From contig JAQUSJ010000001.1 of assembly GCA_028715175.1 (NCBI GenBank), positions 546,386 to 610,385 on the forward strand: a stretch of DNA of 64,000 nucleotides, given 5' to 3'. The notes under the pieces are model-generated. The model did not search any database. It had not been told where the DNA came from and worked only from the letters and a program-made list of their open reading frames with translations. Position 1 is the stretch's first letter. Every line of letters begins with the position of its first letter. The translations under genes were made by a program, and so were the position numbers. Shown piece after piece: positions 1,317-19,459 of the stretch. This stretch comes from Candidatus Daviesbacteria bacterium (GTDB lineage: Bacteria > Patescibacteriota > Microgenomatia > Daviesbacterales > UBA10151).

Positions 1317-4300
1317 CTAAAGGCTTGAAACAACTCCCAAATTAACAGCATATGTTTCTTGTAAATATAATTCCGTTACAGCAAGCAGTGATAATTGGCT
1401 ATTTGTTGCCTTTGTTTTGGAAAGTCCAGGCTGGACAATAAACACTTTGAGCTCAGGAACTAAAAATGAGCTCTTGTTCTCTATTTCTTCAAGTTTTATC
1501 AAGTCTCCTTTTTCAAATCGGGATACTCCGTATTTATTGTTCCTACTTATTTCTCTTTTACGCATATGCTTCATAAGAACCTTAAAATCGCTTTTCCATA
1601 AAACGCTTTTTTGTGCCTGACCGCAGACAGCATAAAGGTCATCAATGCGTGCAGCTGCTCTCCCTTCTTTTGCGTATTTACAATGGTAGAAGTGGGCAAT
1701 TAAGCGGTTACCCAAAATTTTAAGTGCCACAATGTCAGCAGCTTCATAAGCGTCATCATCGTCAAAAATAATATCGTAGTTGTCAGCGTAACTCTTTTGT
1801 TGGATTTTTTTGAGCACATGATATTGAATTGACCGTTTGTTTCTCTGATAAGTTTGTGACTCTTCAGACAAATTAACACCTGTCCAATCCCACGTTTCAA
1901 TCCTGTTCCTATTAAAAGAGTCTTTCCCTGCATTTTTGACTGTGTATACCTCGTTATAGATGAGAAAAGTTCCATCTTCAAAACGTATTGTCGGAGGGGC
2001 TTTTTGCATCCAATCTGATAACAATTCTTTTTTGCCTCTTACTTGTATGGATACAACTTCTTTGCCGGTGGGTAAATAATCCACTTTTCCTTTGAGGATT
2101 TTAATCATGTATTCTACGCTTTTATTGTTTGTGAAAACCTTAAACTTTAGTGAACCCTGTTTATTATTGTCTGTAAGCTCTAATCCTACTTCATAAAAAG
2201 GTACGACATCTCCTGCAACATCAAATTTGATTACGTCTTCAGCTCTAAGGAAAATATCTTCAGACCATTCAATTGTCAGAGGAACTAAATTCGGTCTTGC
2301 TTGTATTTTCTTGGGGATTATGGCATTTTCAATAATCTGATCAACTTTTATCCTATTATTTAGCAGCTTGGAACCGATATGTTTGCACCATTCTATCCAT
2401 TCAGAGATGTTGTCCGCAACCATATGAGCCCATATTTTCCCTCTCCTTGAACATCCAATGCTTATTTTTTCTCCGTTTTCAAAACCGGTTCCGAAGGCGT
2501 TTACTTTGATTGTATTATTAACTTGTGCCTCTGGCATGCCTTCTCTAACATCTGAACCAACGCGCATTGTATAGCTTGTGGTCCGACTGAAGGCAGGTTT
2601 TAAACCAAGATTGATTAGTATTAGCCTGTTTATTGAAAACAGAGTACGGAATACTTGTTCCCCTTGGACAAGTGCTACATCTTCACCAACAACTGCTTTT
2701 GCCAAAGCTGCATGATAGGAACTTTTGTCAGAACTGTTTATATATAATAGTTGTTGTGTTGGATCCCAATAAAGTAGATATAAATCCCAAACTGTATTAT
2801 ACACACCCTTAGTGTCTGCCCATTCAACAAGTTCGCGGGTGGAAGTAATAAATAAAGCTACCTTGTTTTTATTGTTTATTGTTGGTTTAGCGTAAAGATC
2901 AGACTCCTTAATAAGGTCTTTTATTCTATCCGGCCTCCATCTTATACACTTGGTTTGGTATACAACAGTGCTCATTTTTGGCAAGATATTTTGTATTGGG
3001 ATTTCAGATGGCAAGTCGTCAAAGTCTTCTAAAAACTCTGCTGCCTTTTTTTGTTCTTCAGTAGCTCCTTCACTGAGGTTGTGCAGTATAGAGTTCCAAT
3101 CCGAACCGTCTGCATATAACTCCCGAAGTGCATCTGCAATCTCGGGGTTTGCGACATTTGCGATAATTGTTGCATCTCCAATATTTGGATTGGTTCTGGT
3201 AAAACGTCCTGTAAATTGAATAGTAATAGCCAAGCTTTTATGCGCATCATGCAAAGCGGCAATTTTTAATTCAGGAAAATCAAAGCCTTCTCCAAACATA
3301 TCAACACAAACTATAATTCTTGATTGTCTGGTTCTGAGCTTCTGGAGGGCAGCTGTACGCTCGGTTTTTGTTTGCCTGCTATTAACAACCACTGGTTCAT
3401 ATTTTCTTCCAAGTTGCTGATATATTTTTACAACGTTATTTGCTCGTTCAATGTTGTTTACCCTTGCCATTACTATATGGTCTAAACCTTTTTTTATGTC
3501 CTTTTTCAATTGGGCTATTGCCACTTTGGCAATCGGTTCATCCTGGTTTTCCGTGTTATATACTCTTAGTGAGACAAAATTAATGCGCTTAAAATAACCT
3601 TCATCTTGAGCCTTTTTCAAAGGGAAATCAAATATAATTTTTCCATCAACCTGACGACCATCATTCCGGTAAGGAGTAGCCGTAAATTGGAGAATTATCT
3701 TATCCGTAAAGTTTTTGCGGAACTTTTCCCAAGTAGGGGCTGTTATATGATGGGCTTCGTCAATAAAAAGGGAATGGCATAGATTTGCAACCTGTTTCTG
3801 CATATCTTCATCAAAACCATTTATAACCTGCATAGTTGCCACTATTACGTTGCAAGACTTAAAGAAATGTTCAACCTCAGAGACTGAGCGTAATTTGTGT
3901 TCAAGTATGCCTACCACAGGATATGCCGCTTCTTTACCAACAATCCCTAAACTTTTTAGCAAACCAAGATTTATGAATTTATTTGCTATCTGGGTACGCA
4001 AAGCATCATTCGGAACAACTACCAACAATCTTTCTATGCGTTGGTTGATCAAAAGAGCAAGCATGGTTTCCGTTTTACCTGTACCTGTTGGCATTACAAT
4101 AGTTGCAGGTTTAGTACGTGCCTTCCAGTAGCCTATGGTTGTATGAAGTGCACCACTTTGTGCAGATCTTAAACCTGGTTTATCAGGTTCTTTTTCTTCT
4201 TCAACAAAGAAAAACTGCCCCTTCCAGGATTTACGGACGCTGGTACAATAATCCTGCATAGCTACTTGATTAGTAAGCTCTATAGTGTTTGTTTTAGGTT

Positions 4301-13967: not shown

Positions 13968-15161
13968 ATGCAAACTCAGGGTATTAAATATACAGGATCA
14001 AAAAGAGAAATAATACCTACTCTACTTAAATTAGTAGCTTCGTTAAATGTTAGAACCATTTTTGATGGATTCTCTGGTACCACAAGAGTTTCGCAAGCTT
14101 TCAAAAATGCCGGTTATACTGTATACGCAAATGATATTGCCATATGGTCTAAAGTTTTTGGGCAGTGCTATCTCCTGAATAGAAAATCCGCCTCTTATTA
14201 TCTACCATTGATTGACCATCTAAATAAAATTCCGGGTAAACCAGGCTGGTTTTCAGAACACTATGGCGGAGAAGCAAATGGTGGTAGTGCCGTAAATAAA
14301 GACGGAAGAAAAAGAATGTGGCAATTACACAATACTATGAAGCTTGATGCTATACGAGAGGAAATCGATAAAATTGCTAATGACGAAATTGAAAAATCAG
14401 TACTTCTCACTAGTCTAATTTTAGCGATGGATAAAGTTGATAGTTCTGTTGGTCACCACGTTTCTTATCTAAAACAATGGGCTTCTCGTGCTTACAATTT
14501 AATGAAAATGGAGATTCCAAGATTAATAATCGATGATAAAAATCACAAGGTTTTCAATGATGATATTTTTGATTTACTTGATCAAGTAGAAGTTGATTTG
14601 GCTTATTATGATCCACCATACGGTTCATCTAATGAACTCATGCCCCCATCGCGTGTGCGATACGCTTCTTACTACCATATTTGGAAAACTGTTTGTATTA
14701 ACGATAAACCAAAAGTTGTAGGTGTTGCCAATCGACGCGAAGATGTAAGCGATGTGATTGCCGGATCCGTTTTTGAGGAGTTTAGGAAAAACGAAGACGG
14801 TAGATATATTGTTATAAACGCTCTTAAGAAACTAATAGAAAAGACGAAAGCAAAATATATTGTTTTGTCATATAGCAATAATGGAAGAGCAACGCTTGAT
14901 GCAATTCTTGAAATTTTACAAGAACTTAACATACCATGTTCTATTTTTGAAATGGATTATAAGAAAAACGTTATGGCAACAATGACGTGGACAAATGAAT
15001 GGCTTAACGGAGGAAATGCGCATAATCTACAAAATAAAGAATTTCTTTTCCTGATACAAAAGGGTGGAGTTGCTAAGACGGTAGGAGAAATTAAGATTGA
15101 AAAAATTAACTTGCGAGAAATAATAGATAAGAATCAACAGAAATTACCCTATTTTAATTAG
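13968..15161 (+). CDS. DNA methyltransferase (N6-adenine or N4-cytosine; DPPY motif)
   Basis: Motif I FDGFSGTTRV (FxGxG) and motif IV LAYYDPPYGSS; 397 aa. Confidence 0.8.
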   Translation: MQTQGIKYTGSKREIIPTLLKLVASLNVRTIFDGFSGTTRVSQAFKNAGYTVYANDIAIWSKVFGQCYLLNRKSASYYLPLIDHLNKIPGKPGWFSEHYGGEANGGSAVNKDGRKRMWQLHNTMKLDAIREEIDKIANDEIEKSVLLTSLILAMDKVDSSVGHHVSYLKQWASRAYNLMKMEIPRLIIDDKNHKVFNDDIFDLLDQVEVDLAYYDPPYGSSNELMPPSRVRYASYYHIWKTVCINDKPKVVGVANRREDVSDVIAGSVFEEFRKNEDGRYIVINALKKLIEKTKAKYIVLSYSNNGRATLDAILEILQELNIPCSIFEMDYKKNVMATMTWTNEWLNGGNAHNLQNKEFLFLIQKGGVAKTVGEIKIEKINLREIIDKNQQKLPYFN

Positions 15162-15261: not shown

Positions 15262-15335
15262 GGTCGGGGTGGAGAGAATTGAACTCTCTACATCTGCGTC
15301 CCAAACGCAGCGGTCTACCGATGACCTACACCCCG
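15262..15335 (-). tRNA. tRNA-Pro (anticodon UGG)
   Basis: Reverse complement CGGGGTG TA GGTC ATCGGTA GACC G CTGCG TTTGGGA CGCAG ATGTA GAGAG TTCAATT CTCTC CACCCCG A CC. Confidence 0.8.
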
Positions 15336-15422
15336 TGGTGCCCAGGGAGGGACTCGAACCCTCACGTCCTTGCGGACAACAGCTCTTAAGGCTGCACTGT
15401 CTACCAATTCCAGCACCTGGGC
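15336..15422 (-). tRNA. tRNA-Leu (anticodon UAA), long variable arm
   Basis: Reverse complement GCCCAGG TG CTGGAATTGGTAGACAG ... GCAGC CTTAAGA GCTGT TGTCCGCAAGGACGT GAGGG TTCGAGT CCCTC CCTGGGC A CCA. It abuts tRNA-Pro with 0-nt spacing. Confidence 0.8.
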
Positions 15423-16173: not shown

Positions 16174-16260
16174 AAAAATCCTACTAAAAATCCATGCCTT
16201 TCATCACTAAAAAGCACAGATTCTAGCTTTACTTATACTACAAGTTAACCGGGAAAAATT

Positions 16261-16521
16261 TTAACGGTCTTCTCTTGGTCTGGCAATGTTAACAACGATC
16301 TTACGACCATCAACATCTGCACCGTTTAAGTTTTTGACTGCGTTTTGAGCTTCCTCATCGGTTGACATCTCAACGAAACCAAATCCTCTTGACCTTCCTG
16401 TTTCGCGGTCTTTAACAACTTGTGCGCTGATAACATTACCTGCTTGAGCAAAAAGCTCAGCAAGCTTGGCATCATCAACACCCCAAGGCAGGGAACCTAC
16501 GAATAATTTCTTATTGTTCAA
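16261..16521 (-). CDS. RNA-binding protein with an RRM domain
   Basis: RNP-2 LFVGSL and RNP-1 RGFGFVEM; 86 aa; TTG start. Confidence 0.8.
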   Translation of the reverse strand: MNNKKLFVGSLPWGVDDAKLAELFAQAGNVISAQVVKDRETGRSRGFGFVEMSTDEEAQNAVKNLNGADVDGRKIVVNIARPREDR

Positions 16522-16527
16522 AAAAAT

Positions 16528-16565
16528 TCACCTCTCTTTCTTTTTAGATTTTGTGGAGGTGAATT
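16528..16565 (-). promoter_or_regulatory. 5'-UTR hairpin pairing the SD-like GAGGTGA with an upstream anti-SD (10-bp perfect stem aattcacctc/gaggtgaatt, 18-nt loop), followed by a U7 run directly before the RRM gene start
   Basis: Inverted repeat read directly from the sequence; on the mRNA the SD-proximal arm is GAGAGGUGAAUU-UUUUUUU-UUG. Confidence 0.4.
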
Positions 16566-16644
16566 ACTGTAAAAACACTAAATACACTCTACTCACATAA
16601 ATAGTATCACACATCTCCCGCAAAATAGCAAATACCCCAAAATT

Positions 16645-16678
16645 ATCACGCAATAATCGCGCAACTTATCGCGCATTA
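16645..16678. repeat. 34-bp perfect direct repeat, copy A (atcacgcaataatcgcgcaacttatcgcgcatta); contains the Fic stop codon
   Basis: 34/34 identity to 17749..17782; contains the internal tandem half-sites AATCGCGCA / TATCGCGCA. Confidence 0.85.
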
Positions 16679-17736
16679 TGCAGGGCATAGTAGGAACTGG
16701 GACCTTTACCGTTCAATTTAAGAAGACCCTTGCCTGATAAATTCTGCAATTTAAGTTGTGCCGTTCTTTTAGCCACCTTTAAAATATCCACCACATCTTC
16801 CGAAGTAATTCTACCAGTGGTGGTTAAAAAATCCATAATTTGAATCTCATCCCTGTCCAAAAAGATCTGCTCGCTCTTTTTACTAACCTTGCCAAATCCA
16901 ATAGATTGAATTTGTTCCAGTACTTTTCTTGCCTCAATCAAAAATCCGGTGGTAAAATATTCCAGCCACAAGGTAAAATCCATATCCGCTGAGTAGGTTT
17001 TGCCTTGAGATTTGTTTTCAGCGCTGTAATAAGACATTCTATCTCTGTTGTAGTAGTCTTCCAAAACCAGGATTTTCCTGAAATCCCAGCCATCTCTGTA
17101 CAACTGAAGCTGGGTTAAAAGTCTTGCTACCCTGCCATTGCCGTCTGTAAATGGATGGATAGTCACAAATTGCAAGTGCAGGATGCCGGCCCTGATGATT
17201 GGATGAACACCTTCTTTTTTCGATTCCTTAAACCACTTCAGCAAATCATCAACCATTTTTTTCACCTTACCGGCAGGGGGAGCTTTAAATCTGACCATTT
17301 CACGGCCATCACCCAAATCATCCAAAACATACACATCGGCAGGTCTAAATTTACCGGTTTTTTCTTTGTCCACCAAACCGGAAATTACTATCCTGTGCAA
17401 ATGTAAAACTTCCTCAAGCGTAATATCTCCTTTCTTTTTAGCCATTTCATCAAGGAGTTTTAACGCATTATAATAATTTTCTACCTCCAGGATATCTTTT
17501 TGAGAAGCCCTTACGGTTTTTCCCTCCAATACCTTTCCCACTTCAAATTGAGCAAGCTTATTTCCCTCAATGCTGGTTGAGGTATGGGCCATACGGAGTA
17601 TTGCCTGACGACGCAATTGTGCTTCGTTTAGGGGGAGCACCCTTGACCTTTCAACAGCGGCTTTTATTTCAGCAATCTCTGCAATCCGGGAAAGTATGGT
17701 CGAGGTAATATTATATTGAGGTTTTAACATATGCAT
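16666..17736 (-). CDS. Fic-family protein (AMPylation/adenylyltransferase fold) with a C-terminal winged-helix DNA-binding domain
   Basis: Canonical Fic motif HPFTDGNGRVARLL. The table ORF starts at 17781 inside the repeat; the likely native start is M16/M18 (MHMLKPQYNIT...), at 17736 or 17730. Confidence 0.8.
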   Translation of the reverse strand: MHMLKPQYNITSTILSRIAEIAEIKAAVERSRVLPLNEAQLRRQAILRMAHTSTSIEGNKLAQFEVGKVLEGKTVRASQKDILEVENYYNALKLLDEMAKKKGDITLEEVLHLHRIVISGLVDKEKTGKFRPADVYVLDDLGDGREMVRFKAPPAGKVKKMVDDLLKWFKESKKEGVHPIIRAGILHLQFVTIHPFTDGNGRVARLLTQLQLYRDGWDFRKILVLEDYYNRDRMSYYSAENKSQGKTYSADMDFTLWLEYFTTGFLIEARKVLEQIQSIGFGKVSKKSEQIFLDRDEIQIMDFLTTTGRITSEDVVDILKVAKRTAQLKLQNLSGKGLLKLNGKGPSSYYALHNAR

Positions 17737-17748
17737 ATTATACCATAT

Positions 17749-17782
17749 AATCACGCAATAATCGCGCAACTTATCGCGCATT
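17749..17782. repeat. 34-bp perfect direct repeat, copy B; contains an ATG in frame with the Fic gene
   Basis: Identical to copy A; both copies are in the same orientation. Confidence 0.85.
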
Positions 17783-17803
17783 AGTCTATGGTAATATCTT
17801 TAC

Positions 17804-19459
17804 ATGCGGGTGAAAATTCTGCTTTTATTTTTTGTTTTCTCTTTTCTTTTTAAAACCGACCACTCATTTGACCAGGATTTGGGACGGCATTTAAAACTGG
17901 GTGAAATTATCTGGCAAACTAAAAACGTACCCCCAACCAACCTATTTTCTTATACATATCCTGATTTCCCGTTTATTAACAGCCATTGGTTGTTTGAAGT
18001 CCTGGTATATCTGGGACAACAAACAATCGGTCTGCAAGCAGTTTTGGTTCTAAAAATTCTTACCATACTGTTGGCTGTTTGGTTAGTTCTTGAAACAATC
18101 CCTAAAAAACAATACTTACTGCTGCCTGTTGCCTTTATTTTTTTACATACCCTAAGAGAAAGACCGGAGTTGAGACCGGAGATATTCAGCTTCCTTTTTA
18201 CAGCTCTTACTATTTATCTTTTAGATAAATTTGAAAAAACCAGAACCAAGTTGGTCAGCTTATTGCCGGTAATTCAACTTCTTTGGGTCAATATTCATAT
18301 TTATTTCATCATCGGCATTATCCTGCAAGCAATTTTCTTACTACATCTAAGTTACCAATACTTACGTTTACACCCCAAGGGTGTAAAGCTAAAGTTACTG
18401 GGAATTATTTTTACACTCTCGGTAGCGGTAAGTCTTATCAATCCTAGCGGATTGAAAGGGGTACTAAACCCCTTTCTCTATAGTACAAATTACGGCTATA
18501 CCATTGTTGAAAACCAGACAATGTTCCTCCTGGAAAGCATCAATTTTAGAAACCCTAATTTTTTGTTTGTAAAACTAGCCTCTGCGGCTATTCTTTTATC
18601 AATCGCAGTAGCCTTGTTTAAAAAAAGGCTTTTGATTAAAAATCTTCTTCTTGCCGTTTTTGGGCTAACTCTTGCCTTAGCGAATGTACGTAGCTTCCCT
18701 TATCTTGTATTCATTTCACTACCGGCAATTTTGGAAAATTTCGGTACACCCAAACTCACTCTGTTGCACAAGTTTTTTATTGTAATAACAGTTCCGCTGC
18801 TTTGTTTAGAAAGCTTTTTCTATTTAAACGGGGATTATTATCAATACACCAGCAGCGACAACCGGCCAAGATTAGAATTTAAAGAAAGCGGCAAGAATGC
18901 TTTGGATTTTGTTTTAAAAAATGATTTGCCTCAACCTGTTTTTAACAATTTTGATATCGGAAGCTACATTACATATCGTGGCTGGCCCAAATACCGTGTT
19001 TTTATTGACGGCAGACCGGGGGAGTATCCTAAAGAATTTTTCCAAAGTGTTTATATTCCGATGCAATCGGACCCGCAAAAATTCAAGGAGGTAGAACAAA
19101 AATTTGGCTTTAAGACCATTATTTTTTCCCACACAGATCAAACCCCCTGGGGAAAAGCTTTTTTAGCATCAATAGTCAAAGATCCTGACTGGAAAATAGT
19201 TTATGTAGATGATTTTATGATTATACTAGTAAAAAACAATGTTGTAGCCTCGCAAGGCCTAGCCTTGCAAACTCTTAGTCCGGTTACTTATTCTTTTGAT
19301 TCTTATGTTTCTTATCTCAGACTATCTTTATTCCTGGCTCAAACCGGAAACCCTCAGTCTGCCCAAAAGTTTGCTGAGAAAGCATTATCTCTTTTTCCAA
19401 AAAGCCCTTTGGGCAATGCCCTTTTTGGAATCAGTACCCCAAACAAATTCTTCTGGTAA
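17804..19459 (+). CDS. Hypothetical polytopic membrane protein (possibly GT-C-like) with a TPR-like C-terminus; carries a family-1 palindromic insert
   Basis: About 10 TM helices and a C-terminal AQTGNPQSAQKFAEKALSLFPKSP. The insert encodes LRLHPKGVKL. Confidence 0.55.
   Translation: MRVKILLLFFVFSFLFKTDHSFDQDLGRHLKLGEIIWQTKNVPPTNLFSYTYPDFPFINSHWLFEVLVYLGQQTIGLQAVLVLKILTILLAVWLVLETIPKKQYLLLPVAFIFLHTLRERPELRPEIFSFLFTALTIYLLDKFEKTRTKLVSLLPVIQLLWVNIHIYFIIGIILQAIFLLHLSYQYLRLHPKGVKLKLLGIIFTLSVAVSLINPSGLKGVLNPFLYSTNYGYTIVENQTMFLLESINFRNPNFLFVKLASAAILLSIAVALFKKRLLIKNLLLAVFGLTLALANVRSFPYLVFISLPAILENFGTPKLTLLHKFFIVITVPLLCLESFFYLNGDYYQYTSSDNRPRLEFKESGKNALDFVLKNDLPQPVFNNFDIGSYITYRGWPKYRVFIDGRPGEYPKEFFQSVYIPMQSDPQKFKEVEQKFGFKTIIFSHTDQTPWGKAFLASIVKDPDWKIVYVDDFMIILVKNNVVASQGLALQTLSPVTYSFDSYVSYLRLSLFLAQTGNPQSAQKFAEKALSLFPKSPLGNALFGISTPNKFFW
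18365..18393. repeat. Family-1 in-frame palindromic element, copy 1 (cgTTTACACCCcaaGGGTGTAAagctaaa) inside a membrane-protein gene
   Basis: 8-bp perfect stem / 3-nt loop hairpin; 29/29 identical to 37209..37237; encodes RLHPKGVKLK. Confidence 0.8.

Follow-up and report, generated by a model that had tools for sequence, protein, structure and literature searches.

Three-site direct-repeat arrays at both ends of a Fic gene in Candidatus Daviesbacteria, likely operators for autoregulation by the encoded winged helix

We analyzed a 64-kb stretch of a Candidatus Daviesbacteria genome (contig JAQUSJ010000001.1; the whole stretch is called the window here), in which a minus-strand gene for a Fic protein whose C terminus bears a winged helix-turn-helix (HTH) domain lies between two copies of a 34-nucleotide (nt) direct repeat. 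The 34-mer, ATCACGCAATAATCGCGCAACTTATCGCGCATTA, was found as two exact copies on the plus strand, at 16645-16678 and 17750-17783. The perfect identity reported in an initial annotation of this DNA thus held, whereas its coordinates for the upstream copy (copy B, given as 17749-17782) were one base off. With one mismatch, the repeat extends to 37 nt (16642-16678 and 17747-17783; spacing, 1105 bp). No third copy was present in the window, even with 3 mismatches, and in 100 shuffles a 34-mer repeat never arose with 3 mismatches tolerated; these zero matches rule out a chance origin. The features at the gene are as follows, "array" denoting one copy of the 34-mer.

16645..16678, minus strand: candidate 3' operator array (copy A of the initial annotation), the same 34 nt as the 5' array
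16666..17730, minus strand: Fic gene, 354 amino acids (aa) plus stop (Pfam Fic, 6.5e-20; PADLOC SoFic model; alignments to 8cil and 7xux)
17731..17781, minus strand: open-frame extension MRDKLRDYCVIIWYNMH from the ATG in the 5' array, judged untranslated
17737..17745, minus strand: extended -10 box TGGTATAAT for Fic transcription; the 6 nt ATGCAT separate it from the start codon (17730-17728)
17750..17783, minus strand: candidate 5' operator array (copy B), with TGCGCGAT at 17780-17773, AAGT, TGCGCGAT at 17768-17761, TAT, and TGCGTGAT at 17757-17750; TAA precedes the first unit

Repeated units within each 34-mer had been described as tandem half-sites; such units do exist, but each copy contains three phased 8-mers and not two. 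On the plus strand they read ATCACGCA, ATCGCGCA, and ATCGCGCA, with starts 11 and 12 bp apart, and on the Fic strand the order is TGCGCGAT-AAGT-TGCGCGAT-TAT-TGCGTGAT, with starts 12 and 11 bp apart. All four exact occurrences of ATCGCGCA in the 64 kb are inside the two repeats. The 5' array ends 7 nt upstream of the Fic -10 box and therefore covers the spacer and the -35 region of the Fic promoter. In the 3' array, unit 1 is formed by the last two Fic codons, with the stop codon spanning the last base of the unit and two spacer bases (GCG CGA TAA), and units 2 and 3 are noncoding. As the initial annotation had it, the TAA stop (16666-16668) and the last residues, N-A-R, are encoded within copy A, and a stop codon inside the array is conserved in orthologs.

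The other end of the gene differed from that proposal. The longest minus-strand open reading frame (ORF; 16666-17781, 371 aa) is opened by an ATG at 17781 in copy B, which had been taken as the Fic start. The deposited identical protein (MDD5415939.1, Candidatus Daviesbacteria) begins instead with MLKPQY at position 17730, as do its orthologs with MLKPQY/MFxPxY; the M(F/L)xPxY start is common to all 47 aligned orthologs, and two loci (L037 and L042; loci compared with the window are cited by L number) have in-frame TAG/TAA stops directly upstream of it. An ORF running precisely from repeat to repeat is therefore found only at the 3' end. No Shine-Dalgarno sequence was present before the start at 17730, which lies 6 nt after the extended -10 box, so that the Fic mRNA is probably leaderless. 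The TATAAT-N6/7-ATG layout recurs in Fic orthologs.

The encoded protein scored 72 bits with the Pfam Fic model (cutoff, 24 bits). The active-site motif HxFx(D/E)GNGRxxR is present as HPFTDGNGRVAR at residues 192-203 and is invariant across orthologs. Besides, the inhibitory motif (S/T)xxxE(G/N), as defined for class II Fic proteins (PMC9755527), is present upstream of the Fic core as S51-T-S-I-E55-G56-N57, and ST.IEGN is invariant in the alignment. By these motifs, the protein is a Fic/Fido AMP-transferase of class II, with the inhibitory helix in the same chain, N-terminal to the core, and with predicted enzyme activity. Its C-terminal HTH is homologous to those of CccR and CbFic2, with alignments reaching residue 350 (8cil) and residues 338 to 341 (7xux), and residues 292-353 show weak similarity to ArsR/Lrs14-type HTH domains. 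An AlphaFold model from the 79-89% identical set A2 (predicted local distance difference test [pLDDT] score, 69) resolved the C-terminal domain poorly, as helices followed by a beta hairpin, with low confidence.

We scanned one genome per species (596 Gb) for the pattern ATCRCGCA-N3-ATCGCGCA-N4-ATCGCGCA with free spacers. The pattern matched 59 loci, nearly all in Patescibacteria (many classes), against about 0.01 expected by chance, as estimated from the pattern length. A Fic ortholog (32-95% identity) adjoined the array in 47 of them, and the array was usually located 11 to 105 nt upstream of the Fic ATG, in the same orientation as the gene. Only one or two loci per genome matched the strict pattern, including the genome with the 770-kb contig that carries L037, and the array is therefore not a dispersed repeat; the many scattered copies without a link to Fic that would have marked a generic repeat did not appear.

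We also examined two samples that were independent of the motif. In the first, 80 metagenome loci were selected by Fic protein similarity, and an array was counted with up to 5 mismatches and up to 200 nt upstream. Of the 15 testable loci whose helix is of the (K/R/Q)R(T/S/A)A type (the KRTAQ type), 14 had it upstream of Fic, compared with none of about 58 loci of other Fic subfamilies. The second sample consisted of six orthologs of the divergently transcribed membrane protein next to Fic (57-73% identity; L143-L148). Fic was next door with both 5' and 3' arrays in all six, so the Fic-less Daviesbacteria locus sought by way of these orthologs was not found among them. In loci not selected by the motif, the mean top-base frequency was 0.90 in the units versus 0.63 in the spacers; the units are under selection and are far better conserved than the spacers. 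A tblastn search against plasmids yielded only Fic homologs of 28-37% identity, and the Klebsiella copy from this search follows rsmI and has no array.

Each of the 16 Daviesbacteria-type loci that we examined has a 3' array at or just past the end of the Fic reading frame (these are the window, L041, L037, L038, L042, L049, L012, L005, L060, L061, L143-L147, and L149; L148 lies on the same contig as L061), and the 3' array was also found in L014, L055, L056, L003, L013, L035, and L077. The final codons of Fic, together with its stop (..A-R-TAA/TAG), fall within unit 1 of this array in many loci. In six genomes the 3' array ends 9 to 13 nt upstream of the -35 box of a promoter (TTGCTA-N17-GAtAAT) of a gene for an RRM-type RNA-binding protein. 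It is kept, however, where the downstream gene is a different one (L049 and L145), where the RRM gene is displaced (L005), and where the next gene is convergent (L014, L143, and L146), and it therefore belongs to the Fic unit. The 3' array may function in bridging to the 5' array, as a transcription roadblock, or through an added effect on the neighboring gene.

Other Fic winged-helix subfamilies have triple direct repeats of their own, with an 11- to 12-bp period, in the same place:

helix ..SKQGA: repeat unit CTTGACTnA, three times
helix ..SAATA: repeat unit of the TGAnTGATG type, three times, ahead of TATAAT
helix ..AKAT: repeat unit ATTCGTCnA, three times, overlapping TTGACA/TATAAT
helix ..SPKTA (L074): repeat unit TGACCCGAT, three times

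An Agrobacterium plasmid copy of Fic likewise has ATGGATG-type repeats upstream. Within the Daviesbacteria clade, the helix AKRTAQ is paired with TGCGCGAT units, and KR(A/S)AQ helices (L005, L060, and L145-L148) are paired with many TTCGCGAT units in both the 5' and the 3' arrays. Where Fic is near the motif but not directly downstream of it (L033, L034, and L052), the helix is a different one, AKPTRN or SKPARV. This covariation is the strongest evidence that points to the Fic winged helix as the probable binder of both arrays.

Several loci showed departures from the simple layout. The 5' region of L005 (about -105 to -20 from the ATG) contains a four-unit TGCGCGAT array and a promoter-proximal three-unit array of the TTCGCGAT variant, the latter resembling the 3' array of L005 itself; the operator number is therefore not fixed at three. 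In L012, L144, and L146, a GC-rich insert of about 31 nt with an internal inverted repeat (CAGCCTCGACTAGACGTCGAGTCTAGGCGGG) is located between the array and the -10 box and displaces the array from the promoter by about 30 nt. A second small GC-rich insertion, a CCCTGAGCGAAG..GTCGAA-like element on either strand, is present in array flanks of L037, L061/L148, L062, and L143. The two insertions look like miniature repeated elements of the host genomes. In L028 and L043, a sequence resembling a tRNA T arm (GGTTCAAATCCAACC; resemblance only) follows the array in place of a Fic gene.

Among characterized relatives, CccR of Yersinia pseudotuberculosis (PDB 7xux), a Fic protein with an HTH, represses its own promoter via sites near -35/-10 (PMC9755527). 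The window protein has the same domain order (N-terminal helix, Fic domain, and C-terminal HTH), and the A1 profile matched 7xux over profile positions 13-341 (E 3e-23), which indicates full-length homology. Sites at the gene's own promoter are likewise found in the window family, where an array 7 nt upstream of the -10 box is conserved and covaries with the helix. Autorepression keeps the toxic AMP-transferase low in CccR, and regulation of the window gene may have the same effect. The operators are different, however: that of CccR is a widely spaced inverted repeat (AGATAATCAT-N26-ATGATAATCT) for a symmetric dimer, whereas the window has three direct 8-mers one helical turn apart (11- to 12-bp period) and a second array at the 3' end of the gene. 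Besides, CccR is a secreted type VI effector, whereas nothing suggests secretion for the window Fic.

SoFic of Shewanella oneidensis (SO_4266; PDB 3eqx) is reported to bind the 100-bp stretch that directly precedes its own gene (bioRxiv 10.64898/2026.07.09.737422). It is also a class II Fic with a winged helix and belongs to the single-gene "SoFic" anti-phage defense family of PADLOC, whose model PDLC03963 (from a library without curated cutoffs) aligned residues 17-350 of the window protein to profile positions 30-351 of 361 (E 5.4e-55). A profile-based comparison aligned the window protein with SoFic as well, but with the NCBIfam SoFic equivalog NF046030 it scored 57.4 bits against a 550-bit cutoff, and it therefore belongs to the family only as a remote member and is no equivalog of SoFic. 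The site to which SoFic binds is unmapped. EcSofic has a small downstream antitoxin gene (PMC12249575), no counterpart of which was seen at the window Fic. The conserved chromosomal synteny of the gene is untypical of defense islands, yet it would be compatible with a defense role. CbFic2 of Coxiella burnetii (PDB 8cil), in which DNA binding via the C-terminal HTH switches AMPylation to deAMPylation (PMC10628234), is one of the nearest relatives with a solved structure, and its alignment with the window protein extends through the C-terminal HTH (residues 50-350; E 2.6e-22). It has been studied as a host-directed effector with no specific operator described, whereas the window family has a conserved site array at its own gene.

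We consider it likely that the 34-mers are cognate operator arrays read by the C-terminal winged helix of the encoded Fic for autoregulation. The initial annotation had offered paired operators for this domain as one of its readings, and the comparative evidence supports it well, namely, linkage to Fic, position at the promoter, helix covariation, and two relatives that bind their own promoters. Each 34-mer would present three head-to-tail 8-bp sites (consensus TGCGCGAT), one helical turn apart, to the winged HTH. The 5' array would be occupied directly upstream of an extended -10, probably leaderless promoter, so that bound Fic would control its own, potentially toxic, gene; by analogy with CccR, repression is the most likely sign. 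In the Daviesbacteria/Microgenomates lineage, the 3' array would have been retained alongside Fic as an additional cognate site; it most likely cooperates with the 5' array, through bridging by Fic dimers or a block to read-through, and would not serve a particular downstream gene.

Several observations weigh against this reading. The array-to-ATG distance varies from 11 to 105 nt, and simple promoter occlusion therefore cannot hold everywhere; activation is possible. The insert of about 31 nt in L012, L144, and L146 puts the array at about -50 to -82 from the ATG. A neighboring Fic of the window-type family is missing at about 12 of the 59 motif loci. A 3' array within 200 nt is absent from most Parcubacteria-type orthologs, and the array pair is therefore not required for the Fic family. 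The evidence that Fic itself is the binder consists of co-occurrence and covariation. KRTAQ, moreover, is presumably in the recognition helix, to which we assign it by sequence alignment and general knowledge of winged helices, and the AlphaFold pLDDT is below 50 at residues 277-318 of the C-terminal domain. CccR and SoFic bind as dimers, and the CccR site is an inverted repeat with a 26-bp gap (PMC9755527); how a dimeric Fic reads three direct repeats lacks an explanation.

An extension of the autoregulatory reading is possible, though doubtful. Fic dimers, with two winged helices each, may bridge both arrays and loop out their own 1.1-kb gene, and the DNA-bound oligomer may be an enzymatically "safe" state, like the CbFic2 switch. 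In lambda, two three-site operator arrays, OR1-3 and OL1-3, flank the CI repressor gene and can be bridged by the repressor. This is a functional analogy only, with no homology; the lambda operators are palindromic 17-mers, and looping here is a proposal. If it were true, the gene flanks would be the operator and the antidote of a single-gene toxin or defense module, and the direct repeats would allow clean loss of Fic by recombination with one array left (compare L047 below).

The exact identity of the two window arrays is not the rule. In all 15 other Daviesbacteria-type loci the 5' and 3' arrays are nonidentical, typically at 4 to 6 positions, as in the following two loci:

L041: 5' array TGCGTGAT-TTAT-TGCGCGAT-TAT-TGCGTGAT; 3' array TGCGCGAT-AAGT-TGCGCGAT-TAT-TGCGCGAT; 6 differences in 31 positions
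L149: 5' array the same as the window 5' array; 3' array TGCGCGAT-AATT-TGCGCGGT-TTT-TGCGCGAT; 4 differences in 31 positions

The window 5' array matches that of L149, whose Fic ortholog is 89% identical, at 31 of 31 positions, and one C-to-T substitution separates the window 3' array from that of L041. The identity of the window copies would thus need no more than a common ancestry under strong constraint with one or two changes, or else a short tract of gene conversion. A C terminus longer by 2 residues (..HNAR) was considered as a gene-conversion scar and withdrawn, as P0007 (..YNAR) and P0091 (..TNAR) have the same length. In L098, which holds a distant Fic subfamily with a TTGAC-type operator in a high-GC organism, a perfect 40-nt direct repeat (CGGTTGACTTATGAGTTGACATATGGTTGACATATAAATT; 2941-2980 and 4021-4060, 1080 bp apart) contains the array and flanks Fic, a gene-bracketing arrangement as in the window. 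In L055, the similarity between arrays of the same genome extends beyond the units over about 55 nt. The similarity beyond the units in L098 and L055 suggests that homogenization or reduplication occurs in the Fic family. We thus regard common origin of the arrays, strong constraint, and homogenization as the probable basis of the 34/34 identity, and not a target-site duplication.

The other reading offered by the initial annotation was a cassette-like insertion or duplication. The repeats would then be the ends of a mobile or excisable unit, attL/attR-like sites or a target duplication, with recombination inserting or deleting the gene. Perfect direct repeats do bracket a single gene both in the window and in the unrelated L098, and some loci record gain or loss. 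In Woesebacteria, L036 and L047 (flanks 82-84% identical) differ in the presence of Fic: L047 lacks it and keeps one array (3142-3205 region) 30 nt upstream of a HAD-hydrolase gene, and the same gene follows Fic in L036 (1305-2390). A Fic-less orthologous locus with one retained copy, which the initial annotation had suggested looking for, was thus found once, which shows that an array may stay in place while the Fic gene next to it is gained or lost. In L002, a single array is located between convergent genes. In L004 and L033, the array is followed by a short stretch that encodes only the Fic winged-helix segment (..RVVDILSCPKRTAQFHLQRLKKIGTIKQVGKGPAS..):

L004, 7024-7160 (about 970 nt from the locus end), and L033, 369-500 (first 400 nt), both after reorientation in the Fic sense: array plus winged-helix segment

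In L033 a Fic gene of a different subfamily comes about 250 nt after this segment. The segment is the remnant of a deleted Fic or else a stand-alone minirepressor. The cases of L002, L004, and L033 mean that the Fic unit is occasionally remodeled, which does not make it a mobile element. We judge a cassette very unlikely. The location of Fic is fixed in every Daviesbacteria-type locus checked, and one presence/absence pair with a retained array was found in Woesebacteria. Fic is beside the same membrane-protein gene in 6 of 6 neighbor-selected loci and in other Daviesbacteria loci (neighbor 57-81% identical), and this synteny, together with the nonidentical arrays in 15 other loci, argues against a cassette or a target-site duplication. 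In the subclade of L013 and L035, whose Fic proteins are 51-55% identical to that of the window, the 5' arrays run opposite to the gene whereas the 3' array is direct, so that Fic is bracketed by inverted arrays, with two inverted arrays upstream of Fic in L035; inverted arrays could not give excision, and they argue against site-specific excision as a conserved function. Furthermore, most orthologs have the 5' array only, L036 itself has no 3' array, and the 5' copy coincides with the promoter. Fic is the only gene in the 1.1-kb unit of the window, and its neighbors encode the RRM protein, the membrane protein, a methyltransferase, and tRNAs; no recombinase, integrase, or transposase gene was seen beside it, and none is listed in the gene tables for L143-L148. 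A target duplication of 34 bp would also be unusually long.

The flanking genes bear on another explanation, and their features are as follows.

16261..16521, minus strand: gene for an RRM-type RNA-binding protein, 86 aa (Pfam RRM_1, 3.1e-23), the downstream neighbor of Fic
16603..16631, minus strand: sigma-70-type promoter of the RRM gene, with TTGCTA at 16631-16626, 17 nt, and GATACT at 16608-16603
17789..17797, plus strand: extended -10 box TGGTAATAT of the divergent membrane-protein gene, with the ATG at 17804, exactly 6 nt later

The 3' copy might be mainly an operator of the RRM promoter, in which case the 34-mers would form a two-promoter regulon and not a flanking pair. The RRM promoter, which we picked out manually in the alignment and which the consensus scan did not list, begins 13 nt past unit 3 of the 3' array. 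The layout TTGCTA-N17-GAtAAT, with the array 9 to 13 nt before it, is conserved in the window, L041, L037, L038, L042, and L012. The downstream gene of L049, which is a different one, is likewise preceded by a promoter (TTGAAT-N17-TATAGT) 8 nt past the array, and the downstream gene is co-oriented in L013 and L035 as well. We nevertheless regard this explanation as unlikely. A different gene comes after Fic in L049, L005, L143, L145, and L146, so the RRM gene is not a universal partner; the 3' array persists beside convergent genes (L014, L143, and L146) and a displaced RRM gene (L005), in many loci unit 1 is tied in place to the Fic stop codon, and the array position at about -47 to -78 is not a repressor position. 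Alternatively, some other regulator whose gene lies elsewhere could bind the arrays, such as a response regulator of the kind that recognizes direct repeats, and Fic would then be no more than a target gene. Direct repeats phased by 11 bp that replace a -35 box are typical of OmpR/PhoB-type activators, and a few arrays have no adjacent Fic. Direct repeats have been described for PhoP (PMC2275107). This last alternative appears most improbable to us, since the operator sequence tracks the recognition helix of Fic, both between subfamilies and inside the Daviesbacteria clade, no gene other than Fic accompanies the array consistently in different contexts and phyla, and the strict pattern is confined to one or two loci per genome.

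On the other side of Fic, the membrane-protein gene (17804-19459, plus strand) matched no Pfam family beyond weak TPR hits. Equivalent -10 boxes for this gene are present in L005 (TGCTACAAT-N6-ATG), L049, and L041. Both divergent genes have a -10 box 6 nt before the ATG, and the 5' array therefore lies between two back-to-back, leaderless-looking promoters; inserts of about 30 to 50 nt between the array and the membrane-protein promoter in L041 and L037 show that the link of the array to the divergent promoter is not fixed. A plus-strand promoter from the consensus scan (TTAACA-N16-TATAAT, 17724-17751) was rejected as a by-product of the AT-rich -10 region, its hexamers being unconserved in L037 and L049. 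The 5' untranslated region of the RRM gene (16522-16600, minus strand) is a leader conserved across Daviesbacteria (GTGAGTAGAGTGTATTTAGTG...), in which AAUUCACCUC and the ribosome-binding site, GAGGUGAAUU, pair in a 10-bp hairpin, although the z-score of the fold is no better than -1.5. This hairpin could be a temperature- or protein-responsive switch for the RRM-type protein. An Rfam search of 16200-18000 gave nothing near any gathering score. Farther along, a gene for a D12-class N6-adenine DNA methyltransferase (13968-15161, plus strand; PADLOC type II methyltransferase model, 5.9e-139) is followed by tRNA-Pro and tRNA-Leu genes side by side (15262-15422, minus strand).

Autoregulation by a Fic-HTH protein is of an already known kind, with experimental proof in CccR and indications in SoFic. 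The new features are the architecture of three direct repeats, found family-wide, and the second array at the gene end. Our literature searches found no description of a direct-repeat operator for Fic-HTH proteins or of a 3' array, and among the Fic-HTH literature found, a specific DNA site has been mapped only for CccR. To our knowledge, few comparable autoregulatory circuits are known in candidate-phyla-radiation bacteria, in which the window gene likely represents one. Winged-helix Fic enzymes such as SoFic, CccR, and CbFic2 are actively studied as toxins, effectors, and anti-phage defense proteins, and the arrays would provide an operator code (three direct repeats, helical-turn spacing, and a sequence that tracks the helix) for a large family, with >4,300 relatives at E <1e-20. 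Short oligonucleotides make DNA-binding specificity, the stoichiometry on direct repeats, and the link between DNA binding and AMPylase control testable. The second array, by which the gene is flanked, is unusual and may involve looping.

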